DNA from: Patescibacteria group bacterium
Lineage (GTDB): Bacteria; Patescibacteriota; Patescibacteriia; 2-01-FULL-39-33
Length of the DNA stretch: 32,000 nt
Direction: 5' to 3'
Assembly: GCA_041662745.1 (NCBI GenBank)
Contig: JBAZRV010000004.1
Coordinates: 1 to 32,000, forward strand
A program made the translations under genes and the position numbers. Shown here piece by piece: positions 1 to 22,804 of the stretch (within the stretch, counting starts at the first letter, position 1; each line of letters begins with the position of its first letter). A model generated the notes under the pieces. The model made no database searches. It was not told where the DNA came from and worked only from the letters and a program-made list of their open reading frames with translations.

Positions 1-187
1 AAATGAAGAGAAACTTCATTTATTCAAAAAAGTCGGTTCGAACTTTATTATTGAAGCTCGAACCGTACTTTTTGAGCCACGCGGAGCGTGGCGAACCCTT
101 TCAGATTCAGGATTTTTTGGGGGGAATTCAGAACAGACGGCGCTTCGTGCCGACCCCATTTCGGCTTCCAATTCCGATTTTCAATTT

Positions 188-3592: not shown

Positions 3593-3593
3593 G

Positions 3594-4325
3594 ATGGGCA
3601 CTATCTGGCAATTGGGCGAACATCGCCTCGCTTATGGCGACTGCCGCAATGCCGAATTGCTTGAGCAGCTTTTCGGCCAAGAAAAAATCAACCTTATTTG
3701 CACTGACGTGCCTTATGGCGTAGCAGCGGTGGAATCGAAAAGAAATTTTCATCGACTGTCAAAAGATAAGGAGATTGCCAATGACCATCTGCAATCGGAC
3801 ATCGAGTATCAAACTTTCACTGGGCAATGGCTGAATGCCGTTACGCCTTTTCTGGCCGTTAAGAATTCTGCCTATGTTTTCAACGCCGATAAAATGATCT
3901 GGCCGCTTAGGGAAGGATTGATTGATTCCGGATTCAAAGTCGCCCAGCTTATTATCTGGGTTAAATCGCAGGCCGTCATCGGCCGCCTGGACTACGCTCC
4001 GCAACATGAATTAATTCTGTACGGCTGGCATGGCACGCACCGCTTCCGGCACTCCAAAGACAAGTCCGTCCTTTTCTACCCGCGCCCGACTAAAAGCAGA
4101 CTCCATCCAAGTACAAAGCCAATCGGACTGATTCGCCGGCTCATTCTTAATTCCTCGGAAGTCGGCGATGCGATTTTTGACGGCTTCCTTGGATCGGGCA
4201 CTGCATTATTAGCTTGCGAGCAAACTAAGCGCCGCTGTTTTGCAGTTGAGATAGATTATGAATATTGCCTGACTGCTATCCGGCAATGGGAAAAAATGAC
4301 AGATAAATTAGCAATAAAAATATGA
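3594..4325 (+). CDS. DNA methyltransferase (N6_N4 family, beta class)
   Basis: Motifs present are TDVPYG (motif IV), HPSTKP and FDGFLGSGTALLACE (motif I). The ATG at 3594 lies directly after the upstream stop. The longest ORF starts at 3552 and would overlap the upstream gene by 41 nt. Confidence 0.85.
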   Translation: MGTIWQLGEHRLAYGDCRNAELLEQLFGQEKINLICTDVPYGVAAVESKRNFHRLSKDKEIANDHLQSDIEYQTFTGQWLNAVTPFLAVKNSAYVFNADKMIWPLREGLIDSGFKVAQLIIWVKSQAVIGRLDYAPQHELILYGWHGTHRFRHSKDKSVLFYPRPTKSRLHPSTKPIGLIRRLILNSSEVGDAIFDGFLGSGTALLACEQTKRRCFAVEIDYEYCLTAIRQWEKMTDKLAIKI

Positions 4326-4726
4326 AAGACGATCAAAAATTAAAACAGTTGGCGATCGAACAATTGGGCAAAACTCCAATCGTCCAGGTTGTTTGCGAAA
4401 AAATCGGCTTGCCTCGCTCAACTTTTTACAAATGGAAAGCTAAGGACGATAAATTTTCAGAAGCGGTCGATAAGGCTATGTTTGACGGGCGGAATTTAAT
4501 CAATGACTTTGCCGAATCACAGCTTATCAGCAATATTAAAAATAATCAGCTGACCGCAATTATCTATTGGCTTAACCATAATCACAAGAATTACGGCAAT
4601 AAACTGGAAATAAACGGCAAGTTGAAAAACGATAATGCTCCGCTGACTCCGGAACAAGAGCAAGCCATTATGAGAGTAGTGGAATTAGCTGATTCCACAA
4701 ATCAACATTTAATAAATAACCCATAA
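4322..4726 (+). CDS. putative terminase small subunit (HTH protein)
   Basis: It has an N-terminal HTH (IGLPRSTFYKWKAKDDKFSEAVDKA) and an IIYWLNHNHKNYGNK motif typical of TerS-like proteins. It overlaps the upstream stop by 4 nt and sits immediately upstream of the large terminase. Confidence 0.6.
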   Translation: MKDDQKLKQLAIEQLGKTPIVQVVCEKIGLPRSTFYKWKAKDDKFSEAVDKAMFDGRNLINDFAESQLISNIKNNQLTAIIYWLNHNHKNYGNKLEINGKLKNDNAPLTPEQEQAIMRVVELADSTNQHLINNP

Positions 4727-4730
4727 ATGT

Positions 4731-6257
4731 ATGGAAGTCCAACAAAATGAAGCTTTGGCTTCAAATGATGTTTCCTTAAGAGAAATCATCTCCAACCAAT
4801 CAATGCGAAGCGAGCTGACCCGTCAAAGCCACTGGTGGTTCTTCAATATCTACCTGAACCACTATGTCTCCTATGCAGCCGCTCCCTTCCACAAGCAAAT
4901 TTTCAGCCTAACTGATGACGAAACTATTAAAACCCTGCTTTTGGTGGCCTTCAGAGGCAGTGCCAAATCAACCATCCTGACTTTGTCTTACCCCATCTGG
5001 GCGATCTTGGGCAAGCAGCAAAAGAAGTTTGTCATTATCCTCGGCCAGACCCAAAGGCAGGCCAGGCAGCATTTGGTTAATATCAGGCGCGAACTCGAGG
5101 CCAATGAACTGTTACGGCAAGATCTCGGGCCCTTTAAGGAGATCGAAGACGAATGGGGCTCGTATTCATTGGTTATTCCTAAATACGGAGCCAGGATTAC
5201 GGCCGCCTCCATGGAGCAGACAATCAGAGGTGTGCGACATAATCAGTTCAGGCCGGACTTAATCGTCTGCGATGACATCGAAGACCTGCAAAGCGTTAAA
5301 ACCAAGGAAGGCCGGGATAAAATCCAGCAATGGATTACCGGCGAGGTTATCCCGGCCGGCGATTTGAACACCAGAATCGTCTTTGTCGGCAATTTACTGC
5401 ATGAGGATTCGCTGTTAATGCGAATCAAGGAAAAAATCATTAAAAAAGATATCGATGGCTATTTTCTGGAAATCCCCTTGATTGACAAGGACGGACAGAT
5501 TACCTGGCCGGGTAAATTCGCCAACCTGGAGGATATCGAAAAAGAAAAGAAAAAAATCGGCAATGAAATCTCCTGGCAGCGGGAATACCTGTTGCGGATT
5601 ATCTCCGACAGCGAGCGAGTCATTCATCCTGATTGGATCACCCATTACGAGAAGCTGCCGCCGTTTGACTTTGAGAAGTTTGACTTTAGGTTTACGGCTA
5701 CCGGCATTGATCTGGCTATCTCACAAAAGGACTCAGCTGATTACACAGCCATGGTTTCAGCCCATGTCTATGGCTATGAGCAGAACCTGAAAATCTACAT
5801 CGTGCCCAACCCGATCAATCAGCGGATGACGCACAGTGAAACCTTGAATACGGCCATGAACTTATCCAAATCACTGGGCGAAGGCGAAATGACACACATA
5901 TTAGTCGAAGATGTCGGCTACCAGCAATCAGTCACTCAGGAGCTGGTACGCATGGGCTATCCGGCCAAATCAGTCAAAGTCCATGGCAGCGACAAACGGT
6001 CAAGATTAGCTTTGACTAGCCATTTGATACAGAACAAAACAATCTTGTTTCCACCGCAGGGAGCTGAGCTATTGATCAGCCAACTGGTCGGCTTCGGCGT
6101 AGAGAAACATGACGACTTGGCCGATGCCTTTTCGCTGCTGATTAACAAAATTATCAGCATGAATCATAAGGAGCAGGGCGTAGGATTGTGGGTGCTGACT
6201 GAAGACGGCTGGAGCGGCGGCCGCTACAGAACCAGGGGCAAGGAATTTGAGGATTAA
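4731..6257 (+). CDS. terL: terminase large subunit
   Basis: Walker A-like AFRGSAKST and Walker B LIVCDDIED are present. The C-terminal nuclease-type region includes GVEKHDDLADAF. Its size (508 aa) and position after the TerS-like gene fit. Confidence 0.85.
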   Translation: MEVQQNEALASNDVSLREIISNQSMRSELTRQSHWWFFNIYLNHYVSYAAAPFHKQIFSLTDDETIKTLLLVAFRGSAKSTILTLSYPIWAILGKQQKKFVIILGQTQRQARQHLVNIRRELEANELLRQDLGPFKEIEDEWGSYSLVIPKYGARITAASMEQTIRGVRHNQFRPDLIVCDDIEDLQSVKTKEGRDKIQQWITGEVIPAGDLNTRIVFVGNLLHEDSLLMRIKEKIIKKDIDGYFLEIPLIDKDGQITWPGKFANLEDIEKEKKKIGNEISWQREYLLRIISDSERVIHPDWITHYEKLPPFDFEKFDFRFTATGIDLAISQKDSADYTAMVSAHVYGYEQNLKIYIVPNPINQRMTHSETLNTAMNLSKSLGEGEMTHILVEDVGYQQSVTQELVRMGYPAKSVKVHGSDKRSRLALTSHLIQNKTILFPPQGAELLISQLVGFGVEKHDDLADAFSLLINKIISMNHKEQGVGLWVLTEDGWSGGRYRTRGKEFED

Positions 6258-6440: not shown

Positions 6441-6479
6441 TACCTATTAAAATAGTTCATTAAAGCAGTGTAAATTAAT

Positions 6480-6534
6480 ATGAGGCGAGCGCTTTGCAGG
6501 CCATAAATAATGGTTTTCAGAGCGCTCGCCTCAT
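6480..6534 (+). promoter_or_regulatory. conserved 5'-leader stem-loop of DGR target gene 1
   Basis: A 14-bp perfect stem ATGAGGCGAGCGCT/AGCGCTCGCCTCAT encloses an inner CCAT/ATGG helix. It is followed by CATTCCGGGGCAAAAG. A homologous element precedes target gene 2. Confidence 0.5.
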
Positions 6535-6606
6535 TCCGGGGCAAAAGCCGCCAGTCCGAGCGATTCGGGCAAGTCAGCAGTACCAATCAAGAAAGGAAGG
6601 TATGCC

Positions 6607-7380
6607 ATGGGTAATCCCACGGTGAGCCGTACCCTGTCGGTACACAAGGAACACGAAGTATTATTGAAACTGGAAGCCGCCGGCCTCGATGACGATCTGG
6701 CCCAAAAAGTCATTGACTCCAAAGACAACGACTTGGCCATGAAAGTCATCCGGCTGATTCAGAACGGCGGATTCGAAGCGACCACGAGCCAGAAACGCGC
6801 CCGCGAAATCATGGGCACGAACATGTTCGGCGTCGAGGAAGCTATCCTCCATTTCGGCGTCAATCCCAGCAAAGCGCAACTGGCCGCTCTCTCCGAGATT
6901 CCGTTCTCCGAGGCGGTACTCGCTCAATGCAAAGACACGCACGTTTTGGTGGCAATCTTCCCGCTGTCCATCCTGGAGATCCGCGGCAAGGTAAAGCGCG
7001 GTCTGTTCTACAGCTACGAGGACTCCTGGTATAACAAACAGTCGTTCGCGAAAGACCGCGGCGAAGTGGGTTGGCAACTCGTGCGCAAAACGCCGGTTGA
7101 CAACTCAACGGCGAAGAACTGGACGGAACAGCAAGCGTTGCTGGGCAAGGAAGACGAGACGCCGACCGCCCAGGTTCTGGCCTACACCATCATCGGGCAT
7201 TTCCTGGCCACAGGCGAACGGCTGTTCGAAAAGATCTACGTCCGTACGTCCACTGTGGTTTTGGTCGGCGGCCGCGTCCACCTCGGCTTCTTCGATGCTG
7301 CCGGCCTCGGGGTCTACGGCCGCTGGGCTGACGATCGCCATGGCGCTCTGGCCGTCTCCTCCGCCCGGAAGTCCAACTGA
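6607..7380 (+). CDS. DGR target (variable) protein 1, 257 aa
   Basis: An RBS AAGGAAGG sits upstream. It is paralogous to 7684-8463, sharing MGTNMFGVEEA...GWQLVRKTPV...TPTAQVLAYTIIGHFLATGERLFE. The C-terminal 40 aa are encoded by VR1. No signal peptide or TM segment is evident. Confidence 0.85.
   Translation: MGNPTVSRTLSVHKEHEVLLKLEAAGLDDDLAQKVIDSKDNDLAMKVIRLIQNGGFEATTSQKRAREIMGTNMFGVEEAILHFGVNPSKAQLAALSEIPFSEAVLAQCKDTHVLVAIFPLSILEIRGKVKRGLFYSYEDSWYNKQSFAKDRGEVGWQLVRKTPVDNSTAKNWTEQQALLGKEDETPTAQVLAYTIIGHFLATGERLFEKIYVRTSTVVLVGGRVHLGFFDAAGLGVYGRWADDRHGALAVSSARKSN
7247..7368 (+). repeat. DGR variable region VR1
   Basis: This 122 bp aligns with TR 8829-8950. By hand alignment there are about 25 differences, 23 of them at TR adenines. 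The last 21 nt (CTGGCCGTCTCCTCCGCCCGG) are identical and free of A. Confidence 0.85.
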
Positions 7381-7393
7381 ACCTTGAATCTTT

Positions 7394-7456
7394 GAGGGCT
7401 TGACCCTCTTGATTCCTTGAGCCTTCGGCGCGAATTTTTTTCGTCGCCGAAGGCTC
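7394..7456 (+). promoter_or_regulatory. post-VR hairpin pair (possible DGR target-recognition structure and/or terminator)
   Basis: Hairpin 1 is GAGGG-CTTGA-CCCTC (7394-7408). Hairpin 2 is the 12-bp stem GAGCCTTCGGCG/CGCCGAAGGCTC (7419-7456). The same pair follows VR2. Confidence 0.5.
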
Positions 7457-7540
7457 ACTTCTTTCCTACTATAACCATTGATAGTTTAATAATATTAGTA
7501 ATTGTCCCTTAAAATAAATGTGATAAAAAAATAGATTGAA

Positions 7541-7586
7541 ATGAGCGTTTTGGATGCCAAAGAATTTTGGTTTCTAAAACGCTCGT
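7541..7586 (+). promoter_or_regulatory. conserved 5'-leader stem-loop of DGR target gene 2
   Basis: Stem ATGAGCGTTTT/AAAACGCTCGT encloses an inner CCAAA/TTTGG helix. It is followed by CTCATTCCGAGACAAGAC and preceded by an extended -10-like TGTGATAAA (7519-7527). Confidence 0.45.
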
Positions 7587-7683
7587 CTCATTCCGAGACA
7601 AGACGTAACAACGGGATCGTATTCCCATTTCTAGTCGCCCCAAACAAAAAAAACAAGGGGCTAACAGAAAAGGAGCACATACC

Positions 7684-8463
7684 ATGAAGTGGACAGAAAT
7701 CCTTGCAGGAGAATTGCATGCAGCCGAGCAACGCCTCAGGGTCGCCTTGGGCGACAAGGCCAGCGAAGTTGTCGAGAAAATCAACAGCGATGCCGCTTTT
7801 GCGGACTCGGTCGCCGCGCAAATCATTATGATGGCGGGCGAGGCTGACAAAAGTTCCACCAGCTTGAACCCGCAATGGTTGCGCGCCCGCGAAATCATGG
7901 GCACGAATATGTTCGGCGTCGAAGAAGCCATGAAGCATTTCGGCGTCAATCCCAGCAAAGCACAGCTCGCCGCTCTCGCCGAGATTCCCTTCTCGGAGGC
8001 AGTGCTCGAACAGTGCAAGAACACGCATGTCCTGGTTGCGGTCTTTCCGCTGTCGATTCTCGACATCCGGAGCAAGGCCAATGTCAAGAAGCTGTTCTAC
8101 GACCAGTCGTGGTACAATGGCGAGTCCTTCGCCAAAAGCCGCGGCAAGATCGGCTGGCAACTCGTGCGCAAAACGCCGGTTAGCAACTCAACGTCAAAGA
8201 ATTGGAGCGAACAGCAAGCTCTGATCAGTCAAGACGATGAAACGCCGACCGCCCAGGTTCTGGCCTACACCATCATCGGGCATTTCCTGGCCACGGGTGA
8301 ACGGCTGTTCGAACGCATTTACGTCCGTACATCGTCTGTGGGTTCGGGCGGCAGCCGCGTCCCCCTCGGCGACTTCGCTGCTGCCGGCCTCCGGGTCTAC
8401 GGCAGCTGGGATGACCATCGCGATGGCGATCTGGCCGTCTCCTCCGCCCGGAAGTCCAACTGA
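7684..8463 (+). CDS. DGR target (variable) protein 2, 259 aa
   Basis: An RBS AAAGGAG sits upstream. It is a paralog of 6607-7380 with a divergent N-terminal ~75 aa. The C-terminus is encoded by VR2. Confidence 0.85.
   Translation: MKWTEILAGELHAAEQRLRVALGDKASEVVEKINSDAAFADSVAAQIIMMAGEADKSSTSLNPQWLRAREIMGTNMFGVEEAMKHFGVNPSKAQLAALAEIPFSEAVLEQCKNTHVLVAVFPLSILDIRSKANVKKLFYDQSWYNGESFAKSRGKIGWQLVRKTPVSNSTSKNWSEQQALISQDDETPTAQVLAYTIIGHFLATGERLFERIYVRTSSVGSGGSRVPLGDFAAAGLRVYGSWDDHRDGDLAVSSARKSN
8330..8451 (+). repeat. DGR variable region VR2
   Basis: This 122 bp aligns with TR 8829-8950. By hand alignment there are about 21 differences, 20 of them at TR adenines. It shares the identical A-free 3' 21-mer. 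Confidence 0.85.
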
Positions 8464-8476
8464 ACCTTGAATCTTT

Positions 8477-8540
8477 GAGGGCTTGACCCTCTTGATTCCT
8501 TGAGCCTTCGGCGCGAATTTTTTCGCAATGCCGGAGGCTT
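8477..8540 (+). promoter_or_regulatory. post-VR hairpin pair, copy 2
   Basis: GAGGG-CTTGA-CCCTC lies at 8477-8491. GAGCCTTCGGC.../GCCGGAGGCTT lies at 8502-8540 and is followed by a T-rich run. Confidence 0.5.
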
Positions 8541-8542
8541 AT

Positions 8543-8571
8543 TTTCTTTTTAAACTATTTTTTGCTATAAT
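8543..8571 (+). promoter_or_regulatory. candidate promoter for the TR-containing RNA (weak -35, extended -10 TGCTATAAT)
   Basis: TGCTATAAT at 8563-8571 is the same extended -10 as in the other two promoters. The -35 is only TTTCTT. A second candidate, TGTGATAAA, lies at 8674-8682. Confidence 0.35.
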
Positions 8572-8828
8572 TATTTTGTTCGCTAATGCAGGCGCGGTTA
8601 CGGCTTCGCCTCGCGGACAGCTCATCTTTTTGAGACGTCACCAGAGTATCGCCGTCCACGGATTGCGATAGCGTGTGATAAAAAGATTGAGATGGAACTT
8701 CTTGCCCGCTCTTAGTGGAGGTGATCTTACGCTATCTGCTCCCGAATAAAATACAGGAGAGAAAGGACATAGGCCTGTTTTTTAATAGGCAGTAAACCTT
8801 AATTTCCAGTGATCCTGGCGAGAGCTGG

Positions 8829-8950
8829 CAAATAATGTGGATTCGGACGGCAACCGCGTCAACCTCGGCAACTTCGATGCTACCGGCCTCAAGGTCAACA
8901 ACAACTGGGATGACAATCGCAATGGCGATCTGGCCGTCTCCTCCGCCCGG
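8829..8950 (+). repeat. DGR template repeat (TR), non-coding
   Basis: It is adenine-rich (30 A by my count) and has six AAC and two AAT codons in the VR reading frame. Both VRs differ from it almost only at A positions. There is no plausible start or RBS, and homology to the VRs ends exactly at CGCCCGG (8950). Confidence 0.85.
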
Positions 8951-8971
8951 CACTTCCATCTTTTCTTACTA

Positions 8972-9000
8972 AAACACCCTCCTGTTACAGGAGGGTGTTT
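8972..9000. terminator. strong bidirectional hairpin between TR and avd
   Basis: AAACACCCTCCTG-TTA-CAGGAGGGTGTTT forms a 13-bp stem. T-rich flanks lie on both strands. It sits 22 nt after the TR and 15 nt after the avd stop. Confidence 0.6.
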
Positions 9001-9014
9001 CCATTTATTATGGC

Positions 9015-9365
9015 CTACAATTCCTTAGTTGACTTAATCCAGCCGCCGAGCATTCGGCCGACTTCATCGACATCCTGTTGCAATGTCACGTACTTATTAG
9101 CCGCTAAGGATTTAGTTTCTTTCATCAGCCGCAAGAATATCCTGAGGAAATTCAGCTTTAAGCTGGCTTTTTGCAAAACCGGCAGCTTGTCTGTTTTGGA
9201 CAGCTGGCTGGCCAGCAATATGCTTTCCAAAATATCCAACAGGACATTTTCACAGCGCTGCCACAAAGTGTAGCGGTCTTGCTTAGCCACGCTTTTCCTG
9301 AGGATATAAAATTGCTTGTAGAGATCATAGATTTTTTTAAAGATCGGTATGTCAAAATCTTCCAT
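9015..9365 (-). CDS. avd: Avd-like accessory variability determinant (four-helix-bundle / 23S rRNA-IVS protein family), 116 aa
   Basis: From the ATG at 9365 it reads MEDFDIPIFKKIYDLY...LNFLRIFLRL...DVDEVGRMLGGWIKSTKEL. The C-terminal LRF-LR...EVGRMLGGWI closely parallels Bordetella phage Avd (LRFWLRF...EVGRILGSWI). Confidence 0.75.
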   Translation of the reverse strand: MEDFDIPIFKKIYDLYKQFYILRKSVAKQDRYTLWQRCENVLLDILESILLASQLSKTDKLPVLQKASLKLNFLRIFLRLMKETKSLAANKYVTLQQDVDEVGRMLGGWIKSTKEL

Positions 9366-9774: not shown

Positions 9775-9875
9775 CGGTGTGTTTACAAAAAAATTCGAAC
9801 CGATTTCACCCCCAAAAATTGATGAGCGGGCGGATTTCCTCCCCCAACCCCTCCATCCGCCCGCCCTTTCGGATT
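9775..9875. repeat. 101-bp inverted repeat, left copy (X)
   Basis: It is the perfect reverse complement of 11388-11488, checked base by base. It contains the 10-bp stem GCGGGCGGAT/ATCCGCCCGC (9826-9835 / 9855-9864) around a 19-nt C-rich loop, plus a TTCGAACCG motif. Confidence 0.9.
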
Positions 9876-9883
9876 TGCGATTT

Positions 9884-11020
9884 TCAGTTTTTCTTTGGCG
9901 ACAAATTCTTTTTTTCTAGCATTCTTACCACCTTAAAATCCGTAGTGATTATTGGAATATTACTTGGTATGACATCTAATATTTCTTGTGGTATCTGCTC
10001 AATATCTTTGTTGATAACAACCGCTACAAAATCTTTCGGTGATATATTACCAATTACTCCCATATCACCCTCACTATTTTCTAATGGCCCTAGAGTATGA
10101 TGTTTGTTTGGGACTTTAAATAAAATTGATAAATCATCCCAAAAGTATTTTTTCATCTCACCGGTTTGTTCATAATCGCTTTTTACTAACTCTGGTGGAT
10201 AGGTTGAAATCATGTTGGTTCCAAAAAGTAAATCCGCCATATTCCTAAAGGGGTCATCATATATTTCGAAATCCTCTTTATTTTTAGGCTCCCATCGGCT
10301 TCTCCAATTTTCCTTTTTCAAACGTTCAAATGCAAACTTAGCTAGAGGTGAACTAAAAAAATATGTCTTTATAGACTGATACACCTTATCAGTTGTTTCT
10401 TTTTTTCTTTCATCTCTTATTTCTGGCGTAACCAATAACCAGTCTTGAGCGTAATCTTCTTGTATCGTTTCAATCAAGATATTTGAAAATTCATCGCTGT
10501 TTACCATTTCGTCGTAACTTATGCTATCTAAATTAGCTCCATCGTGAACCCTTTTGTCTAAAAAGATCGACATTGCGCGAATCATCGATTTGCCAAGCTT
10601 TCCCCGCTCATGTTGTACTTCTGGACCATAGCCACCAATAGGAAAATTAACAGCATAACCCTCTTTTTGTAATCGAATTTTCCGATGGCTCAAAATTCCT
10701 TGCCCAAAATAACTTTTTAATTTATTTAAAAGTTCCTCTATTCGCACAATATCTTTTTCATTACGATCTTCAGGCGCTGCATTCAACATCTTAATTAGTC
10801 CTCCTACGAATCTATAGCCACTGTGCTGAGCAACCTTCCTATCGGAAATTAATTGTTTAATTTCTTCAATTAATATTCTCTCATTTTCTTCTCTTTCATT
10901 ATTATTTAAATCAGGACTTTCTCCGCTCATTAGCCCATCAAAACCCGCCTCATTTTCAGTTGGATACTCAAGGCCTTGAATAAAATCTTCTTCTTGTTTT
11001 GGTTGCTCGAGTTTTGGCAT
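9884..11020 (-). CDS. hypothetical protein (378 aa), co-operonic with XRE regulator
   Basis: This 1137-nt ORF starts 5 nt after the XRE stop. It has an acidic N-terminus and no TM segment. I recognise no catalytic motif, and specifically no RT YxDD or HExxH. Confidence 0.7.
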   Translation of the reverse strand: MPKLEQPKQEEDFIQGLEYPTENEAGFDGLMSGESPDLNNNEREENERILIEEIKQLISDRKVAQHSGYRFVGGLIKMLNAAPEDRNEKDIVRIEELLNKLKSYFGQGILSHRKIRLQKEGYAVNFPIGGYGPEVQHERGKLGKSMIRAMSIFLDKRVHDGANLDSISYDEMVNSDEFSNILIETIQEDYAQDWLLVTPEIRDERKKETTDKVYQSIKTYFFSSPLAKFAFERLKKENWRSRWEPKNKEDFEIYDDPFRNMADLLFGTNMISTYPPELVKSDYEQTGEMKKYFWDDLSILFKVPNKHHTLGPLENSEGDMGVIGNISPKDFVAVVINKDIEQIPQEILDVIPSNIPIITTDFKVVRMLEKKNLSPKKN

Positions 11021-11025
11021 ATTTG

Positions 11026-11238
11026 TTATTTTATTAAATCATCAACCGTAACCCCTAACCCTTTGGCAATTTTTGCCATAGTTTCAATCGTGGGATTGGG
11101 CGTAGCCCCCGATTCAATTTTAATTATTACATTATAAGCAATATCAGCCCTTTTCGAAAGTCCATCTTGAGAAATACCTAGTTTATCTCGGCATTTTTTA
11201 ATATTCCTGGCTATTGTTGGCAATTCACTTTGTTTCAT
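11026..11238 (-). CDS. XRE-family helix-turn-helix transcriptional regulator (70 aa)
   Basis: IKKCRDKLGISQDGLSKRADIAYNVIIKIESGATPNPTIETMAKIAKGLGVTVDDL is a canonical HTH_3 sequence. TATAAT lies 6 nt upstream of the ATG, so the mRNA may be leaderless. Confidence 0.9.
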   Translation of the reverse strand: MKQSELPTIARNIKKCRDKLGISQDGLSKRADIAYNVIIKIESGATPNPTIETMAKIAKGLGVTVDDLIK

Positions 11239-11337
11239 AGTATAATTATACTAGTATAGTAGTTAAACAAGTTTTACTACTATAACTTTATCAAAATTCA
11301 TGGATTTTATCAATAATTTTTTTAAGCCCGCTTTTGG

Positions 11338-11366
11338 CCAAAATGAAGTTCGAGCCGATATTTTTT
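11338..11366. repeat. 29-bp inverted copy (B) of recombinase 3' coding sequence
   Basis: CCAAAATGAAGTTCGAGCCGATATTTTTT is the perfect reverse complement of 12969-12997. Confidence 0.85.
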
Positions 11367-11387
11367 CCAGGTTCTTTGGCGGTTTTC

Positions 11388-11488
11388 AATCCGAAAGGGC
11401 GGGCGGATGGAGGGGTTGGGGGAGGAAATCCGCCCGCTCATCAATTTTTGGGGGTGAAATCGGTTCGAATTTTTTTGTAAACACACCG
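11388..11488. repeat. 101-bp inverted repeat, right copy (X')
   Basis: It is the perfect reverse complement of 9775-9875. Confidence 0.9.
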
Positions 11489-11572
11489 CCAATCGGTATT
11501 TGCCCAATTTTCGGGCAGAAGTTTCAGAATTCGCCAACCAGTTTTGGCCTGAAATTCAAATTTTTTGGCTTC
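11486..11572. repeat. 87-bp inverted copy (A) of recombinase 3' end plus the tRNA-Ser 3' terminus
   Basis: It is the perfect reverse complement of 12997-13083, checked base by base. It begins with CCGCCA, the 3' end of tRNA-Ser(GCT). Confidence 0.9.
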
Positions 11573-11634
11573 TGATTCTTAAAGAATTGCCAAAAGCGGG
11601 CTTTAAAAAAATTATTAGTTTTAATCTTAAATAT

Positions 11635-13137
11635 ATGAAGTACTTTATTTACGCTCGCAAGTCCACTGACAGCGAAGAACGGCAGATCTTAAGCATTGAA
11701 TCCCAGATTGCTGAGTTGTATGAATTTGCCGCCAAAGAAAAACTGGAAATCGCCGCTTCGCTGTGCGAAGCGAAAACCGCCAAAGAACCTGGCCGAACTG
11801 TGTTCGGAGAAATGCTGGATCGGATTTGCGCCGGCGAAGCCGGAGGAATTTTGGCTTGGCACCCGGATCGGCTGGCTAGAAATTCAATTGACGGAGGCAA
11901 AATCATTTATCTTTTGGACACAGGCCAGATCAAAGACCTAAAGTTTCCCACATTTTGGTTTGACAGCACACCGCAAGGAAAATTCATGATGAACATTGCC
12001 TTTGGCCAAAGCAAGTATTACATCGACAATTTAAGCGAGAATATACGGCGAGGCCATCGGGCTAAACTAAGAAAAGGGATTTGGCCAGTCTTTGCCCCGC
12101 TTGGCTATCTAAATAATCACAGGACCAAAGGCATAGAATTAGACAGGGAAAGGGCGCCTTTGGTCAAAAAATGCTTTGAGCTATACGCTACGGGCGAATA
12201 TACCCTCAAAGCCCTAAGAGATGTAATCAGCCAAGCGGGGCTAAGAAGCTACCGAGGCAATGTTCTGGCCGTGGCCTGTGTCCAAAGAATGCTCAAGAAC
12301 TCGATCTACTATGGCCTATTCAAATTTAACGACGAATTGCATGAGGGAACGCACGAGCCGATTATTTCCAAGAAACTTTTTGATGAAGCTCAACAAGTAA
12401 TGAGTAATCGAGGCAAGAAGAAACGAAAGCGAAAACACGAATTTGCTTTTTCTGGATTAATGAAATGTGGGGTCTGCGATTGCCTCATAACGGCGGAAAA
12501 ACAAAAAGGCCATAATTACTATCGTTGCACCAAGAAAAAACAAACCTGCGACGAAAAATGTCTGCGCGAAGAATTACTTGTTGAACAGATGAAAGAGATA
12601 ATTCAAAAAGTTTCTTTGCCTGACGATTGGGCAAAAAATATGCTCGCCGAGATTGAGTTGGAACGAGAACAAGCAAGAAAAGACGGCATGATTTTTGGGC
12701 AAAAACTGGAAGTGAGAAAAACAGAAATCGAGCAAACCATGGAACGACTGCTTGATTTGTTTATTGAAGGCAAGCATATCGAGCCAGAGGAATATCACGC
12801 TAAAAAACAAAAACTTCTCATCGAGAAGTGTGAGCTTAATCAACAAATCAAGGATTTTGCCCAAAAAGGAAATAATTGGCTCGAACCCATGAAAGAAATG
12901 ATTTTAGCCAGCAGCCAAGCCAAAATTCTATTGTCGCGAGGCGACAATTCGCAAATCCGAGCATTTCTAAAAAATATCGGCTCGAACTTCATTTTGGAAG
13001 CCAAAAAATTTGAATTTCAGGCCAAAACTGGTTGGCGAATTCTGAAACTTCTGCCCGAAAATTGGGCAAATACCGATTGGCGGAGAGAGAGGGATTCGAA
13101 CCCTCGGTACGCCCATAATAGACGTACAACGGTTTAG
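11635..13137 (+). CDS. large serine recombinase (integrase/invertase type), ~500 aa
   Basis: The N-terminus MKYFIYARKSTDSEERQ carries the catalytic Ser motif, followed by HPDRLARN. A recombinase domain is followed by a Cys-rich zinc ribbon (CGVCDC...YYRCTKKKQTC) and a coiled-coil region. The ORF track start at 11500 is a non-ATG extension through repeat A. The last ~20 codons read antisense through the tRNA (ERDSNPR). Confidence 0.9.
   Translation: MKYFIYARKSTDSEERQILSIESQIAELYEFAAKEKLEIAASLCEAKTAKEPGRTVFGEMLDRICAGEAGGILAWHPDRLARNSIDGGKIIYLLDTGQIKDLKFPTFWFDSTPQGKFMMNIAFGQSKYYIDNLSENIRRGHRAKLRKGIWPVFAPLGYLNNHRTKGIELDRERAPLVKKCFELYATGEYTLKALRDVISQAGLRSYRGNVLAVACVQRMLKNSIYYGLFKFNDELHEGTHEPIISKKLFDEAQQVMSNRGKKKRKRKHEFAFSGLMKCGVCDCLITAEKQKGHNYYRCTKKKQTCDEKCLREELLVEQMKEIIQKVSLPDDWAKNMLAEIELEREQARKDGMIFGQKLEVRKTEIEQTMERLLDLFIEGKHIEPEEYHAKKQKLLIEKCELNQQIKDFAQKGNNWLEPMKEMILASSQAKILLSRGDNSQIRAFLKNIGSNFILEAKKFEFQAKTGWRILKLLPENWANTDWRRERDSNPRYAHNRRTTV
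12969..13083. repeat. B'-A' segment: native contiguous copy of repeats B and A
   Basis: 12969-12997 pairs with 11338-11366, and 12997-13083 pairs with 11486-11572. The segment lies inside the recombinase 3' coding region and overlaps the tRNA by 6 nt. Confidence 0.9.
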
Positions 13138-13172
13138 CAAACCGCCGCCTTCAGCCACTCGGCCATCTCTCC
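13078..13172 (-). tRNA. tRNA-Ser (anticodon GCT), CCA encoded
   Basis: The reverse complement reads GGAGAGATGGCCGAGTGGCTGAAGGCGGCGGTTTGCTAAACCGTTGTACGTCTATTATGGGCGTACCGAGGGTTCGAATCCCTCTCTCTCCGCCA. It has acceptor GGAGAGA/TCTCTCC, anticodon loop TTGCTAA, a long variable arm, and T-arm GAGGG-TTCGAAT-CCCTC. Confidence 0.9.
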
Positions 13173-14495: not shown

Positions 14496-16400
14496 CTAAT
14501 TGTTCTGCGATAGCATTGCCTCAGCAAATTCCTTCTTGGCCGCTTCAATTTCCAACAACTGCCGCGGATCGGAAGTAATCAACTGATCTTCAGAATATGA
14601 GGCCACCACTTTAACGGCCACGTGTTTGGCGCCGGCAAAGAAAATACCTTCGCCCACCGCGCTTTCCAACAACAAATATTTTTCTCCTTCAGTCAATAAA
14701 AAGGTCTTTTGCACCAAATCAATGGCCGCCGGAGACTGCTTAAGCAATAATTGAAGGGCGGAATTATTGACAATGGCCTGGCCATAAGGAGAGGTCAAAA
14801 AATCATTAACATCCTGAGTGATGGTCGTAACGCCCAAATAATATTTGCGGCAACGTTTGACCAGAGCAAAAATGAATTTGGCTGAATCTTCGCGCTGCAT
14901 CAGCCACCAAGCTTCATCTACCACTAAAATCCTCTTTTTCATTTCGGAACGGACAATATTCCAAATATAATTGACAATAGTATAGATTGCCAGCGGCTTA
15001 AGCTCATCTTCCAAATCACGGACGGAAAAAACCACCAGCTGATTATTTAATTGGACGTTTGTCGGATGATTAAGCAGGCCGGAAAAAGTGCCTTCAGTAT
15101 ATTTTTTAAGGCGCAAAACAATACTGCTGCCGCCCTCCATACCTTCCAAAATATCCTGAAAATCCTGCATGATAGGCGGTTCCACCGAACGCAAATCAGC
15201 ATCGGGAGTGATGTCTTTCTTGGCATAAGTTTCCAACAATGCGCGATCAATAATGGAATCCTCCTCCGGCGTAACATCGCCGATCATTAATCGCACTAAC
15301 CCCTTAACGGTAATAACGGCATTGCGGATAATATCTGCCGGTTTGGCGTCTTCACCGATAGCCCGAGGCAAGTCAAAGGGATTGATTTTGCCCTCAGAAT
15401 TAAGCGAAATATCGATGTAAGTGCCGCCAACGGCTTCACACAGGTGATTATACTCCCGTTCCGGATCAATAATGATCACATCGGTTCCAAACATCATGCT
15501 GCGCAAAACTTCCAATTTGATCGTATATGACTTGCCGGCGCCGGAAGTGGCAAACACCACGGAATTGGCATTCTGCAAGGAGAAACGATCAAACAGGATT
15601 AAACTGTTATTGTGGCGGTTAATGCCATACAAGATGCCGTGATCGGAAGTCAAATCCGAGGATACGAACGGAAAAGAAGACGCGGCCGGCGAAGAGTTTA
15701 GATTGATATAGACTTGAAGTTCATCATACGCCATGGGCAAGGTAGAATTAAATCCTTGCTCAGCCTGATAAAACACTCGGCGAGAAAAAATCAGAGTGCC
15801 GCCGAAAAAGTTCTCAATGCGTTCCGAAGTTTTGTCCAATTCCTCCAATGTCTTGGCATATAAAGTCACATACAAAGAAAATTGAAAAAAATGCTCAATA
15901 CCTTGAGTCAGATCATCGCGCAATTTCTCCATATCGCGCAAAGCGGTTTCAGACAAAGGATCGCGGGGCGCTCCCTTTTCCGCCGCGCCGATAATCGTCG
16001 CTTCCAACACGCCGACTTTTTTCTTTAATTGCTTCAAAATGACCGCGGCTTTAACCGGAAAAAAATACATGGCCATGTCCGCCTCAATATCCATATTGAT
16101 AATCGGCGCAAACCAGCCGACGGCGATATAGCGAGGATATTCAAAAACAAAAATCGTCCGAATATAAAGCTCGCCCAACCTGATATGATCGGAATTAACC
16201 TCCAAGGCGGCCGGAGCAATCAAATCCCGGACAGAAACGACGCCGCGCCGATAAATTCTCTCCTCCTCCAACACTTCGCGCGCCGTTTGCAACTCCTTAA
16301 CTTCCGCTTGTTTCTTCTGCTGTTGCGTTGGCGGCGGCGGCGGAGCATAACCGACTGAAGCCGGGGTTGTTTGCTTATTGATATCTTCTGGAGTAAACAT
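14496..16400 (-). CDS. virB4: VirB4/TrsE/TraC-type type IV secretion ATPase (634 aa)
   Basis: Walker A is VFATSGAGKSYT and Walker B is ILVVDEAWWLM. The N-terminal region (ELYIRTIFVFEYPRYIAVGWFAPIINMD) is typical of the VirB4 family. Confidence 0.85.
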   Translation of the reverse strand: MFTPEDINKQTTPASVGYAPPPPPTQQQKKQAEVKELQTAREVLEEERIYRRGVVSVRDLIAPAALEVNSDHIRLGELYIRTIFVFEYPRYIAVGWFAPIINMDIEADMAMYFFPVKAAVILKQLKKKVGVLEATIIGAAEKGAPRDPLSETALRDMEKLRDDLTQGIEHFFQFSLYVTLYAKTLEELDKTSERIENFFGGTLIFSRRVFYQAEQGFNSTLPMAYDELQVYINLNSSPAASSFPFVSSDLTSDHGILYGINRHNNSLILFDRFSLQNANSVVFATSGAGKSYTIKLEVLRSMMFGTDVIIIDPEREYNHLCEAVGGTYIDISLNSEGKINPFDLPRAIGEDAKPADIIRNAVITVKGLVRLMIGDVTPEEDSIIDRALLETYAKKDITPDADLRSVEPPIMQDFQDILEGMEGGSSIVLRLKKYTEGTFSGLLNHPTNVQLNNQLVVFSVRDLEDELKPLAIYTIVNYIWNIVRSEMKKRILVVDEAWWLMQREDSAKFIFALVKRCRKYYLGVTTITQDVNDFLTSPYGQAIVNNSALQLLLKQSPAAIDLVQKTFLLTEGEKYLLLESAVGEGIFFAGAKHVAVKVVASYSEDQLITSDPRQLLEIEAAKKEFAEAMLSQNN

Positions 16401-16404
16401 AAAG

Positions 16405-17088
16405 TTAAACGAAATCCTCGGTTCTTAATTTGTTAACATCGACCAATTTCTCACTGCGGGAAACCGTCGGATTATAAGTATTATAAAAAACCTCAATTAA
16501 CGACTGGGTGTCTAAAACTTGGGCTCGCAAACCGATACTGGCCAAACCCGTTAAAACTTTATCCACGATAGTCAACAGTTCCCGCTGTCTTTGCATGAAT
16601 TGTTTCTGTCCCAAAGATAGGATCTTGGTCGGCGACAGAACATCACCGCCCCTTTGCCAGAAGCTCCTGGTTTTTGAACGGAAGGGTTCATAAGGAACTA
16701 CGACCAAAAAACGCTTTGTCATAATATTTCCCAATTCTACCAATTCGGTGACATATTGCCGATACTCGGCCATTTGCATCTTTAATAAGTCATTGGTCTG
16801 TTTGACCTCGGCGTCTTTCAAAAATTCCAAATACGATTCCAAATCCAATTGCCGTGACTGGATAATGATCTGCAATGGCATATCCAAAGAATTCAAGAAA
16901 CTGACATAACCGGAAATAATGGCGTTCTGTTCATCCTCGGACTTAAGCGCGAAATTAATTGAAGACACCAAAATCACCGATCGCAAAGTGCCGTTTTTCA
17001 TAACAATGGTATCATCCCTGATCTCCGCTATCTGTAAATATTTCTGAGTTGAGGGAGTGGCTTTTGTGGCTTGCCGATTTTTAGCCAT
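16405..17088 (-). CDS. hypothetical protein resembling the N-terminal (pre-ATPase) module of Gram-positive VirB4/TrsE proteins (227 aa)
   Basis: From the ATG at 17088 it reads MAKNRQ...LQIAEIRDDTIVMKNGTLRSVILVSSINFALKSEDEQNAIISGYVSFLNSL. The longest ORF (to 17187) would overlap the upstream gene by 53 nt. Confidence 0.6.
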   Translation of the reverse strand: MAKNRQATKATPSTQKYLQIAEIRDDTIVMKNGTLRSVILVSSINFALKSEDEQNAIISGYVSFLNSLDMPLQIIIQSRQLDLESYLEFLKDAEVKQTNDLLKMQMAEYRQYVTELVELGNIMTKRFLVVVPYEPFRSKTRSFWQRGGDVLSPTKILSLGQKQFMQRQRELLTIVDKVLTGLASIGLRAQVLDTQSLIEVFYNTYNPTVSRSEKLVDVNKLRTEDFV

Positions 17089-17134
17089 AAGATAAAATCT
17101 TCTATTTATGGTCCATCGGTTGACGGACTTATTC

Positions 17135-17584
17135 TTAACTTTGATTATTGATCCCATTCTCCCCTTGGTACACGCCTCCGGTATCAATGACCAAGGCGAT
17201 TTCTGACAAGCGGGACTTGCTGACGGGTTGACGCGCCGCCATTCTAACTGCCGGCTTTTCTTCTTTAGGCTTGGCCAAATCAGCCCTTATTTCATCTAAG
17301 GTAAAAAATTTACGCCAAACCTTGAGTTTAGGATTCTTTAAAGTTTGAAAAAAGTTAAGCAAAAATAAATGAAAGGGTTGGCCGTTTATCTTGGCAAAAG
17401 CGATAATCAGGGTTAGAGCCAAAACCGCCAAGCCGGAAACGGCGAATAAAGAAAAATCAAATATCCTATAAAAAATCACGATGATCAATCCGCCGACAAT
17501 AAGTTCAATGAACTGACGGACGGAAACCGGTCCGATAATCTTATCTTCAACATCCAAAAATTGTGGCACTACCACCTGTTGCAT
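17135..17584 (-). CDS. PrgI-family (VirB3-like) small membrane protein (149 aa)
   Basis: The N-terminus is VPQFLDVEDKIIGPVSVRQFIELIVGG, followed by two hydrophobic helices. This is the characteristic PrgI-family signature, and it sits upstream of VirB4. Confidence 0.6.
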   Translation of the reverse strand: MQQVVVPQFLDVEDKIIGPVSVRQFIELIVGGLIIVIFYRIFDFSLFAVSGLAVLALTLIIAFAKINGQPFHLFLLNFFQTLKNPKLKVWRKFFTLDEIRADLAKPKEEKPAVRMAARQPVSKSRLSEIALVIDTGGVYQGENGINNQS

Positions 17585-17586
17585 AA

Positions 17587-18999
17587 TTAGTAGCGTAAAT
17601 TGCGATTAAGTTCCATAACGGCATGGAATTCGTCAAGCGACAAGGTCGGCTTGCCGGCGGTTAAGCGTTCTTTGATTACCATTTCTATATCTTTGCCCTC
17701 AGCCATGGCCGCTTGCCCCAACAAACGATAAAACTTACTGACTTCATTTTTGTGCCAAGCCGCTATGCCCTCAATTTTCTTGCCAAAATATTCTTTCTCC
17801 AACAAGTCAATTTTTTCTTTAAGCTTGGCTGTTACGACCTTCGGATCGGGAGACAGGCGTCGAAAATCAATCAAGGTCATATTCTCCAACTCCTCAATCG
17901 GTCCCATTAGTTTTTTATTGAACTTTACATCGTCCAAATTCGGTCGGCTGGTCGGTCGTGGCAGAGCCAAATTGCCAGCCAAAGTTTCTTTCGTTGCAAA
18001 CGGCTGAGGTTGCGGCAAAGGCAAATCCTTAACTACCTTAAGTTTAACATCTTGCGCGCTTGGGGGCAATTGTGTTTCTTTTTTTATCGTCTTAGACAGA
18101 GGCGTTAAACCGATTTTTTTCTCTAAAATTTCAGAATCATCGCGCGGTTTGACCATCAAATCATCAGGTATCCGGATTACCGGCAAACCGTCTTCCATTT
18201 CTATGGTCAGGGCGGAACTGTTAGCTTGCGGCTTAGCGGTAACCGTCATGACCGCTTCGTTTTCCCCGTCTTCCGTCAAATCATCCGGTGATTCTCCGGA
18301 GGCGGGCGCGGGACTAACCGGCCCTGCTGGTCCGGCGGCAACCGCTTTAATGATCTTTAACATCCGATCAGCATCGGCTTCCGAAAAATCCATTCCCCCG
18401 ACTTTGCGGCTCTTCATCAAGTTCTCCTTGGTTTCCATTTCGTCTCGAACATCTTTTAGCCGAGCGATAATAATTGAGCCCAAACGCTTAACCATTACCT
18501 CGTCAGCGGCCGGGTAACCGAATGACAAAACAATAGAAGTGGCGGCTTCAGTATAATCAATAGTCCTCGGCGACGCCTTGACTGCTTGAGTGTATTTTTT
18601 AATTTCCTCTTCATCCTCGCGGGAAAAAGTTATAACGGTGGAATTCTTTGGTTTATTTAACGCTTCAGGCTGAAACTTTCTATCAACATCCATTAAAGAA
18701 GGAGCGACTGGGGCCTTCCCGGCCGGCCGGCCGTAATATCCGACTTCATTCACTACCTCCCTAACGCCGTTAGCTACCTGATGCGCCAAAAAATCATTAA
18801 AACCGTAATCGATTTTTAGTTTGTCCGCCAGGACATCGGTCGTCACTTCGCCCAAAAAAATACTGACCACTAAAGACGTGGATTTAATGCCGAATTTTTC
18901 ATCCAAAGCATCCAGCTTATCCAATATCTCGTCCGTGGATAACTTATCCTTGACTGTCGGCGGCAATGATTTAAGTTTATTTAAATATTCTTGAGGCAT
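17587..18999 (-). CDS. hypothetical protein (470 aa) with central Pro-rich linker
   Basis: It lies 2 nt from the downstream gene. It has a low-complexity AAGPAGPVSPAPASGESPDD segment and a conserved-looking C-terminus (DFRRLSPDP...AWHKNEVSKFYRLLGQ...LSLDEFHAVMELNRNLRY). Confidence 0.7.
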   Translation of the reverse strand: MPQEYLNKLKSLPPTVKDKLSTDEILDKLDALDEKFGIKSTSLVVSIFLGEVTTDVLADKLKIDYGFNDFLAHQVANGVREVVNEVGYYGRPAGKAPVAPSLMDVDRKFQPEALNKPKNSTVITFSREDEEEIKKYTQAVKASPRTIDYTEAATSIVLSFGYPAADEVMVKRLGSIIIARLKDVRDEMETKENLMKSRKVGGMDFSEADADRMLKIIKAVAAGPAGPVSPAPASGESPDDLTEDGENEAVMTVTAKPQANSSALTIEMEDGLPVIRIPDDLMVKPRDDSEILEKKIGLTPLSKTIKKETQLPPSAQDVKLKVVKDLPLPQPQPFATKETLAGNLALPRPTSRPNLDDVKFNKKLMGPIEELENMTLIDFRRLSPDPKVVTAKLKEKIDLLEKEYFGKKIEGIAAWHKNEVSKFYRLLGQAAMAEGKDIEMVIKERLTAGKPTLSLDEFHAVMELNRNLRY

Positions 19000-19006
19000 A
19001 ATAATT

Positions 19007-19531
19007 TTAATTTCCTGCTAACTGTTGGCTCTTTAGGTATTCGTCCAACTCCTGCCGGCTAACGCCCAATTCTTCCAACAGCAGACGGCGCTCCAAGCCG
19101 GAAATAGTTGACCAATCATACCTGCTTAACATATCGCTCCGACTATTAACCGATTCAACCGGAGCAGGTATAACCGATACTGCCGAATCATTCTCAATTT
19201 CTCTGGAAGTGTCATTATCCGCAGTTAAAAAATCCTTGGATTGCAACCCCTCAATAAAGGCGTCAATATCGCCAAGATCATCCTGAAAATCCCTAAAACG
19301 ATTTTTGGCTATTTCCAAAGCCAAACGCCGCTTAGTGCCATTACTTTGGATAACTGCCTTTTGTAATGCCAACCAAAATTCATTCAAATCAATATCACCC
19401 CAAATAACTTGGCCGATTAAATCCATAACCGCATAAATCTCAGAATCAGATAACTGAAAAGAGCCAAGCCAAGGATTTAACTGCTTTAACTCGTTAATTG
19501 TGCCCAGTTCATTTACCTGTTGGGTAACCAT
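19007..19531 (-). CDS. hypothetical protein (174 aa)
   Basis: It is tightly packed in the operon, with 3-nt and 7-nt gaps to its neighbours. I recognise no motif. Confidence 0.65.
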   Translation of the reverse strand: MVTQQVNELGTINELKQLNPWLGSFQLSDSEIYAVMDLIGQVIWGDIDLNEFWLALQKAVIQSNGTKRRLALEIAKNRFRDFQDDLGDIDAFIEGLQSKDFLTADNDTSREIENDSAVSVIPAPVESVNSRSDMLSRYDWSTISGLERRLLLEELGVSRQELDEYLKSQQLAGN

Positions 19532-19534
19532 ATT

Positions 19535-22777: not shown

Positions 22778-22804
22778 AAAAATCTAATGAATAAAATGGA
22801 TAAG

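Follow-up and report, generated by a model that had tools for sequence, protein, structure and literature searches.

A probable large serine recombinase integrative element with an unusual bipartite inverted-repeat architecture at a tRNA-Ser gene of a Patescibacteria group bacterium

Three-domain large serine recombinases serve the phiC31, Bxb1, A118/LI and SPbeta prophages as well as the TnpX/TndX and Ccr/SCC elements, which are flanked by hybrid attL and attR attachment (att) sites and recombine at a short core without the need for long homology. In large serine integrases the distance from the centre to the DBD2 motifs is ~5 bp shorter in attB than in attP (PMC11722253). In the Hin H segment, the Mu Gin/G segment and P1 Cin, a serine recombinase gene lies beside or inside a segment bracketed by inverted repeats, and these recombinases are small (~190 aa, with a C-terminal helix-turn-helix), act on sites of 26-34 bp and switch frequently and reversibly. 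The yeast 2-micron circle is divided into two arcs by 599-bp inverted repeats, each of which holds the target (FRT) of the arc-encoded tyrosine recombinase FLP and whose identity is maintained; the circle replicates and exists as equimolar isomers. Tycheposons (bioRxiv 10.1101/2020.12.28.424599) are small cargo elements whose site-specific integrases, mostly tyrosine recombinases, insert them at tRNA genes, tRNA-Ser among them; successive insertions build them into arrays, the 3' part of the tRNA is duplicated as direct repeats, and no bipartite inverted-repeat layout has been described for them. Here we report the analysis of a 32,000-nt stretch of DNA (the window; positions 1 to 32,000 of contig JBAZRV010000004.1, assembly GCA_041662745.1) from a Patescibacteria group bacterium, in which a two-gene cassette bracketed by perfect inverted repeats lies between host DNA and the gene of a large serine recombinase, next to tRNA-Ser(GCT).

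A preliminary description of the locus had proposed that the cassette is an invertible or transposable module delimited by 101-bp perfect inverted repeats. A repeat search of the window bore out the repeats (arms A and A', 101 nt each, 100% complementary, 1512 nt apart) and the two genes between them, a 70-aa XRE/HTH_3 regulator and a 378-aa open reading frame (ORF), both on the minus strand. The recombinase gene, placed ~150 bp away, starts 147 nt from arm A'. The window contains exactly two occurrences of the outer 27 nt of the arm, where 100 shuffles give an expectation of 0, and related arms in other genomes and metagenomes belong to a family of integration elements. Each arm carries a GC hairpin with a 19-nt loop, as had been described; the loop is G-rich, and the stem measures 12 bp here rather than 10 bp. 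The motif likened to a tRNA T-loop is also real (GGTTCGAAT in A' and its reverse complement at 9793-9801 in A), and judging by its spacing to CCG it is best read as a P-type half-site mimicking the tRNA T-arm. The link between a mobile module and the adjacent recombinase likewise stood, but the boundaries did not. The recombinase gene is itself enclosed by another perfect inverted repeat, E/E' (87 nt), whose E copy overlaps A' by 3 nt, CCG being common to both repeat pairs. As read from its junctions, the mobile unit is 9775-13083, not 9775-11488.

The boundaries of the element were obtained by aligning three junctions of att type (S1, S2 and S3) in nine loci. The internal junction S2 reads ...GGTTCGAATTTTTTTGTAAACACA-CCG-CCAATCGG... 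and has the composition P-O-P'. At the left end (S1) the same P arm and CCG are followed by host sequence (P-O-B'), while at the right end (S3) tRNA sequence, ...GGTTCGAATCCCTCTCTCT-CCG, leads into the same CCAATCGG... (B-O-P'). In composition, S2, S1 and S3 read as attP, attR and attL, respectively. Eight other loci repeat the series P-O-P', P-O-host and tRNA-O-P' with mutually unrelated host flanks, and the shared core measures 3 to 9 nt across the aligned loci (CCG to CCGCCAATT; also given as CCG(CCA)). The distance between the motif GTTCGAAT and CCG is 15 nt in all arms, with no insertions or deletions across 33 of them, and 10 nt in the tRNA, a difference in spacing that matches the attP/attB offset rule (PMC11722253); GTTCGAAT would be a true DBD2 (zinc-ribbon) site bound by the recombinase. 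The tRNA-Ser(GCT) is intact, its CCA coming from the element, and the recombinase ORF crosses E' into the antisense strand of the tRNA. Rfam searches at gathering and permissive thresholds gave no match for the arms, only the two tRNAs and antisense-tRNA look-alikes, and ARAGORN did not call the arm as a tRNA. At 9775/11488, where host DNA adjoins one arm and E the other, no target-site duplication was present; with only two copies in the window, a terminal-inverted-repeat transposon or a miniature inverted-repeat transposable element was rejected.

Taken structurally, each arm is likely to be a copy of the P arm from an attachment site of a large serine recombinase, accompanied by a conserved hairpin, and by class the locus is probably an integrative element of the large serine recombinase kind whose bipartite inverted-repeat architecture is unusual. 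This assignment draws on what can be read in the sequences: the composition of the junctions, the tRNA-Ser target, the motif spacing, a layout common to several phyla, the variability of the cargo, the concerted evolution of the arms, one flipped relative and a set of deletion derivatives. Our confidence in any specific purpose of the duplication is low. In the mechanism that we propose, an attP region of ~190 bp (A'-CCG-E) would be carried twice, in inverted orientation. One copy is internal and intact, whereas the other would be the copy used for integration and would now be split into attR (host DNA-CGG-A, at 9775) and attL (E'-CGG-tRNA, at 13083). The two copies would divide the element into a cargo arc (XRE and a variable gene, A to A') and a recombinase arc (E to E'). 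The recombinase would bind GTTCGAAT at B-type spacing in the tRNA T-arm and at P-type spacing in the arm, with crossover at CCG. Excision would yield a circle with two inverted attP copies, and the empty site is predicted to read tRNA-Ser...CTCTCCG and then GTAGTAGAAC.... Recombination between the copies would occasionally flip an arc, and gene conversion would keep the arms identical, host homologous recombination across the 100 nt of identity being the most likely agent and the recombinase itself a less likely one. In flipped forms, where the arcs are co-directional, B, C, D and F (short repeat segments described below) would become direct repeats and the recombinase would be lost by deletion, which would account for the rarity of intact flipped forms.

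Several observations weigh against this proposal. No circular or fold-back contig was present among the 156 loci fetched, and no recombination directionality factor was identified in the element, in which the 70-aa XRE is the only conserved gene besides the recombinase and has nothing that marks it as such a factor. Two equally usable attP copies predict tRNA-Ser upstream of intact recombinase genes, an arrangement seen with truncated recombinases only. Homologous recombination is a poor explanation for the way in which C, D and F, copies of 20-29 nt, co-vary with the gene. The central dinucleotide may be the palindromic CG, in which case the polarity of the site would be blurred, and the proposal does not account for the origin and purpose of the internal attP.

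The locus resembles each of the systems named at the outset in part. With the large serine integrase elements it shares the three-domain recombinase, the hybrid attL/attR flanks around a short core and the DBD2-type motif placed ~5 bp further out in attP than in attB. Here, by contrast, integration is aimed at the very 3' terminus of tRNA-Ser genes, and the recombinase ORF itself contains the P' arm. An additional complete attP-like site, in inverted orientation inside the element, creates two repeat-bracketed arcs, no directionality factor is evident, and identity to phage and plasmid records is <30%. As with Hin, one arc contains its own recombinase, and the 5' part of the recombinase gene, the location of the enhancer in Hin and Gin, includes a palindrome (s). 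Unlike Hin, Gin and Cin, however, this integrase has 500 aa and comprises recombinase and zinc-ribbon domains, its arms of 87-225 nt double as integration junctions, and the two orientations are not both common (at least 13:0 and ~11:1). The inferred circle, with two arcs joined through two inverted repeats of maintained identity that each contain the target of an arc-encoded recombinase, recalls the 2-micron circle, but the 3.3-kb element has no replication gene, no circular contig was found, one isomer is dominant and there is no evidence of attP x attP activity. The family resembles tycheposons in the small size, the cargo, the site-specific integrase and the position at tRNA genes, as well as in arrays built up by successive insertion. 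The coordinates of all features are collected in Table 1.

Table 1. Features of the integrated element and its target, given as positions in the window.
Feature	Coordinates	Strand	Remarks
Whole integrated element	9775-13083		3.3 kb; cargo arc and recombinase arc at 3' end of tRNA-Ser(GCT)
Arm A, distal, read as attR	9775-9875		core CGG 9775-9777; P-type half-site; hairpin 9824-9866
B	9877-9908		inverted, 94% copy of recombinase codons ~30-40 (B', 11722-11753); directly inside arm A
378-aa cargo gene, orphan	9884-11020	-	no family assigned
XRE/HTH_3 regulator, 70 aa	11026-11238	-	HTH_3 8e-14
P_out, promoter-like TTGGCA-18-TATAAT	11217-11246	+	near-consensus, 11/12 match; overlaps XRE start codon
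Palindrome TATACTAGTATA	11247-11258		predicted, likely XRE operator; directly after P_out
Block F-C-D	11312-11387		contiguous; nearly invariant across 13 loci
F	11312-11341		inverted copy of recombinase upstream region F' (11587-11616)
C	11338-11366		inverted copy of recombinase codons ~446-454 (C', 12969-12997)
D	11367-11387		inverted copy of recombinase codons ~47-53 (D', 11772-11792)
Arm A', proximal, P arm of internal attP-like site	11388-11488		hairpin 11397-11439; GGTTCGAAT 11462-11470
S2, internal complete attP-like site A'-CCG-E	11388-11572	+	core 11486-11488; P-O-P' in 9 loci
Arm E	11486-11572		inverted 100% copy of last 87 nt of element: recombinase C-terminal codons and tRNA-proximal CCA
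Large serine recombinase, 500 aa as read	11635-13137	+	last ~18 codons are antisense tRNA sequence
Palindrome s, CGCTTCGC-TGT-GCGAAGCG	11754-11771		8-bp stem; inside recombinase gene between B' and D'
Arm E', read as attL	12997-13083		recombinase C-terminal coding sequence; ends TGG-CGG against tRNA
tRNA-Ser(GCT), integration target	13078-13172	-	ARAGORN; Rfam tRNA, 60 bits

The same layout was found in ~20 genomes of several phyla and in more than 100 metagenome contigs, almost always at tRNA-Ser; a P-arm pattern scan of the metagenomes returned at least 138 arms on at least 120 contigs. On the plus strand of the window the order is A, B, the 378-aa and XRE genes (read leftward), F, C, D, A', E, F', ATG, B', s, D', gene body, C', E' and tRNA-Ser, in which B, F, C and D, at the cassette edges, each repeat a short segment of the recombinase locus in inverted orientation. 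This order recurs in L004, L010, L014, L016, L020, L021, L023, L029 and other loci, from Patescibacteria, Gammaproteobacteria, Dehalococcoidales and Desulfaltia. A tRNA-Ser gene, of any anticodon, adjoins the 3' end of the recombinase gene in 23 of 28 loci. Recombinase homologues at ~75% identity number in the thousands and come from many phyla and groups, including Patescibacteria, Nitrospira, Brocadia, Gammaproteobacteria and Kiritimatiellia, and many of them end in WRRGRDSNPR, in which RDSNP is the antisense T-loop peptide. Direct evidence of recent mobility and cargo turnover came from L010, whose backbone is 97-99% identical to that of the window but which sits at tRNA-Ser(GGA) with a different cargo gene. 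The genome analysed here has at least two family members at different tRNA-Ser genes, since window positions 1-187 are the last 187 nt of a further recombinase gene (...KKVGSNFIIEA...FQFW, then RRGRDSN) that runs into tRNA-Ser(TGA) at 188-277. Outside the family, tblastn against PLSDB plasmids and INPHARED phages recovered relatives at <30% identity only. In IMG/VR the hairpin-stem pattern gave one chance match in a high-GC phage and the P-arm 25-mer gave none. No description of this bipartite layout was found in the literature, and the family, which is large and extends over many bacterial phyla, is apparently undescribed.

The cargo arc ranges from 0.8 to 3.8 kb, always with XRE beside F-C-D as its first gene and B at its end. 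The conserved XRE shows ~60-65% nucleotide identity in relatives, and what follows it is variable: ThaI endonuclease with an N4/N6 methylase, SMODS nucleotidyltransferase, UvrA-like ABC ATPase, HD hydrolase, SAM methyltransferase, EamA transporter and Na/Ca exchanger. A relative with 50% identity (L036) has a perfect 95-nt E/E' pair with neither an A pair nor a tRNA, and in L020 one recombinase arc is flanked on either side by a cargo arc, showing that arcs can be chained; taken together, these two loci suggest that the repeat-bounded arcs are modular. The second cargo arc of L020 has arms of 225 nt with 99% identity (6444-6668 and 11109-11333), and beyond it lies the 3' end of another recombinase gene. 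Two or three P arms in direct orientation were present on single contigs in L053, L060, L092, L135 and L144, which is consistent with successive insertions at the same tRNA-Ser together with decayed older copies.

The identity of the two arms was examined across the family. Arm identity had a median of 0.98 within elements and 0.67 between elements, 27 of 38 arms were nearest to their own partner, and most detected arm pairs were 100% identical over 101-117 nt. E and E' followed the same pattern. By these comparisons the arms undergo concerted evolution, and the preliminary suggestion that perfect identity could stem from ongoing homogenisation was upheld, whereas its suggestion that an assembler had merged two orientations was not. 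Lineage-specific variants of D' (GAAAACCGCC, AAAAACTGCC or GCAAACCGCC) and of C' and F' (GCAGGC in L014, GCGTGC in L022) are mirrored in the cassette copies. Only two of the seven mismatches between C and C' are G:U, and this lack of wobble enrichment favours homogenisation at the DNA level; the idea that C and C' are identical through selection for RNA pairing was therefore rejected. What is conserved in the arm hairpin is its structure: the stems differ in L065, L089 and L051, the hairpin of the window arm carries a compensatory change from AA/TT to AT/AT, and in L091 (arm ending at 1813) the G-rich loop is in the opposite orientation (CCCCCCACACCCCC) between unchanged stems, which suggests inversion of the loop across an 11-bp stem. 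An intrinsic terminator was rejected for this hairpin, which lacks a U-tract and was not called by a terminator scan.

Inversion of the cassette has left traces in the family. L019 is an intact element with a flipped cargo arc (A, D', C', F' ... B', A'). In L006-9 the recombinase gene is cut exactly after C' and fused into F'-promoter-XRE, L125 and L041 read F'-ATG-B'-D'-C'-F'-XRE, and in L059 codons 1-46 are joined to A'. The three arrangements are deletions between C'..C', D'..D' and B'..B', respectively, and they require a flipped precursor, since co-directional arcs are the only arrangement that puts these segments in direct repeat. In 40 loci the 5' end of the recombinase gene was complete, and wherever a tRNA-Ser lay upstream of it in the same direction, the recombinase was truncated. 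In L101, L105 and L155 the recombinase arc has collapsed to a palindrome of ~40 nt. The metagenome sample contained at least 13 internal sites of the window type (D-A'-CCG-E-recombinase, with XRE divergent) and no intact flipped form. At least 24 of its distal arms showed the corresponding arrangement, B'-A'-host, and ~11 of 12 genome loci were in the window orientation. On these counts the cassette does invert, but rarely among surviving forms, and it does not resemble a balanced phase switch.

An explanation that gives the short repeats a role is that B, C, D and F are a built-in fuse in a new class of bipartite serine-integrase element with both arcs invertible. A flip of an arc would turn them into direct repeats, the recombinase and the internal attP would be deleted precisely, and the cargo would be fixed irreversibly beside the tRNA. 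Three independent classes of deletion do exist at exactly these repeats (B'..B', D'..D' and C'..C'); nevertheless, we hold this proposal only tentatively and at low probability. At its edges (D' C' F' ... B'), the cargo arc has the look of a recombinase locus that is missing both its body and its attP and has been opened at the palindrome s. This palindrome matches itself on the minus strand and is conserved in relatives, and the position in the cargo arc that corresponds to s is where the A arms sit. Simple histories (tandem or inverted dimers, successive insertions, or single inversions for each repeat pair) were tried, and none yields the observed order. The segment C' (ATCGGCTCGAAC) resembles the arm motif ATCGGTTCGAAT.

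We consider it unlikely that the locus is a phase-variable invertible cassette in which A and A' are crossover sites and frequent flips by the recombinase switch the expression of the XRE/378-aa operon or of the recombinase. The adjoining recombinase gene, the perfect arms and the flipped element in L019 would all suit such a switch, as would an outward promoter in the arc, which would drive the recombinase in one orientation only, but the strong bias in orientation argues against a frequent, neutral flip-flop, and the co-directional forms are mostly deletion wrecks. In addition, the outer ends of the arms are integration junctions, with host DNA on one side and E on the other, and both arms are P-type half-sites, whose pairing is barred for canonical large serine integrases (PMC11722253). 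The earlier view of the repeats as a stand-alone inversion pair is not supported; what remains of it is that the cassette has flipped in the history of the family, at sites that are not those of a self-contained switch.

Less likely still is the idea that A...A' is an independent, non-autonomous cargo element with symmetric P-type ends, which would form a circle with a palindromic A'-CCG-A joint and insert either way beside recombinase units bounded by E/E'. The CG core would permit insertion in either orientation, yet random insertion predicts ~50:50, unlike the bias observed. Cargo arcs without a recombinase arc do occur beside tRNA-Ser (L105, L155 and L101), but they look like collapses at the E/E' palindrome rather than separate insertions. 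The E/E'-bounded recombinase unit of L036, which has no A pair, and the cargo arcs that flank one recombinase arc in L020 also speak for independence. On the other hand, A' lies immediately upstream of E in ~19 of the 22 recombinase genes with readable upstream sequence, and neither an A'-CCG-A palindromic joint nor a circular contig was present among the loci fetched.

The cassette also contains a promoter-like sequence, P_out, that may bear on expression of the recombinase. A -35/-10 pair is kept at this position in 13 related loci, with differing sequence, and P_out reads toward F-C-D-A'-E and the recombinase gene, which it would transcribe. Its predicted leader folds strongly (z = -5.4) and contains a 30-bp F:F' stem. 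Both divergent promoters are probably under the control of XRE, a hypothesis that would explain why the divergent orientation is preferred, and the F-C-D leader could possibly be a cis- or trans-acting antisense regulator of the recombinase. An account in which the repeats serve RNA or transcription, with hairpins that insulate the cargo arc in both directions and a leader of F, C, D and E that throttles the recombinase by antisense pairing, would have repeat identity kept by selection for pairing and is compatible with the att reading. The structural conservation of the hairpin with its compensatory change, the kept position of P_out, the strong leader fold and the co-variation of F, C and D with F', C' and D' are in its favour, although the C/C' mismatches have no G:U bias, the hairpin has no U-tract and was not called as a terminator, B is on the wrong strand for expression as an antisense RNA, and the exact arm ends at the host and tRNA junctions are left unexplained; we regard it as quite improbable. 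Finally, an assembly artefact (a fold-back chimera, as the preliminary description had allowed, or two merged population variants), which perfect repeats shorter than the k=141 of MEGAHIT-type assemblers might suggest, is effectively refuted, because the junctions are 100% identical in independent assemblies of the same strain (ENA k141 contig L001 and Logan unitig L002) and the architecture recurs in dozens of metagenome-assembled genomes and contigs from different assemblers, with arms of 101-225 nt, some of them imperfect (86-98%).

We then return to the individual proteins of the element. The recombinase carries Resolvase (PF00239, 2e-16), Recombinase (PF07508, 3e-14) and Zn_ribbon_recom (PF13408, 6e-7) domains and matches the integrase family phrog_95 of PHROG (7e-73). 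An exact look-up of the 500-aa protein gave no match, probably because a different start was called. The 378-aa protein had no match in Pfam, NCBIfam or PHROG and no meaningful match in PADLOC, and it has just 19 homologues, all of them remote. Its AlphaFold2 (AF2) model has a pLDDT of 79.7, called confident, and gave no structural match by Foldseek in PDB or BFVD. The last 8 codons of this ORF cross B in another frame, and B lies at the same position in relatives.

Other features lie on both sides of the element. Window positions 6607-9365 hold a diversity-generating retroelement without a visible reverse transcriptase, with two paralogous target genes (6607-7380 and 7684-8463; variable repeats at ~7254-7368 and ~8337-8451), a template repeat at 8836-8950 against which all mismatches fall at template adenines, and a bAvd gene on the minus strand (~9015-9365). 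Between the window and the sister-strain contig L001, nearly all differences fall in 8400-9100. At 2321-6257, two N4/N6 DNA methylases, a small-terminase-like helix-turn-helix protein and a weak large-terminase match suggest a prophage remnant. Downstream of the tRNA, positions 14496-31996 hold a cluster resembling conjugation/type IV secretion, with a VirB4/TraG-type ATPase, PrgI, a weak TrbL/VirB6 match and a 3063-aa ORF that runs to the edge of the window.

If the proposed reading is correct, minimal integrase elements of this family are very widespread and have not been studied experimentally. Its attB would be simple and universal, consisting of the T-arm and acceptor end of tRNA-Ser, and it would have a defined cargo slot that takes up restriction-modification systems, CBASS-like genes and transporters. 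Because the logic of the att sites can be read from sequence, its enzymes would be candidate tools for engineering genomes at a predictable target. For a large serine integrase, an internal inverted attP, perfectly homogenised arms and repeat fragments derived from the element itself make up an unusual layout, which makes testable both the action of such an enzyme on attP-like/attL-like pairs and the means by which repeats of ~20 nt are kept in step with a gene. Overall, such elements would explain the recurrent contig breaks and the small islands beside tRNA-Ser in the genomes of uncultured bacteria.

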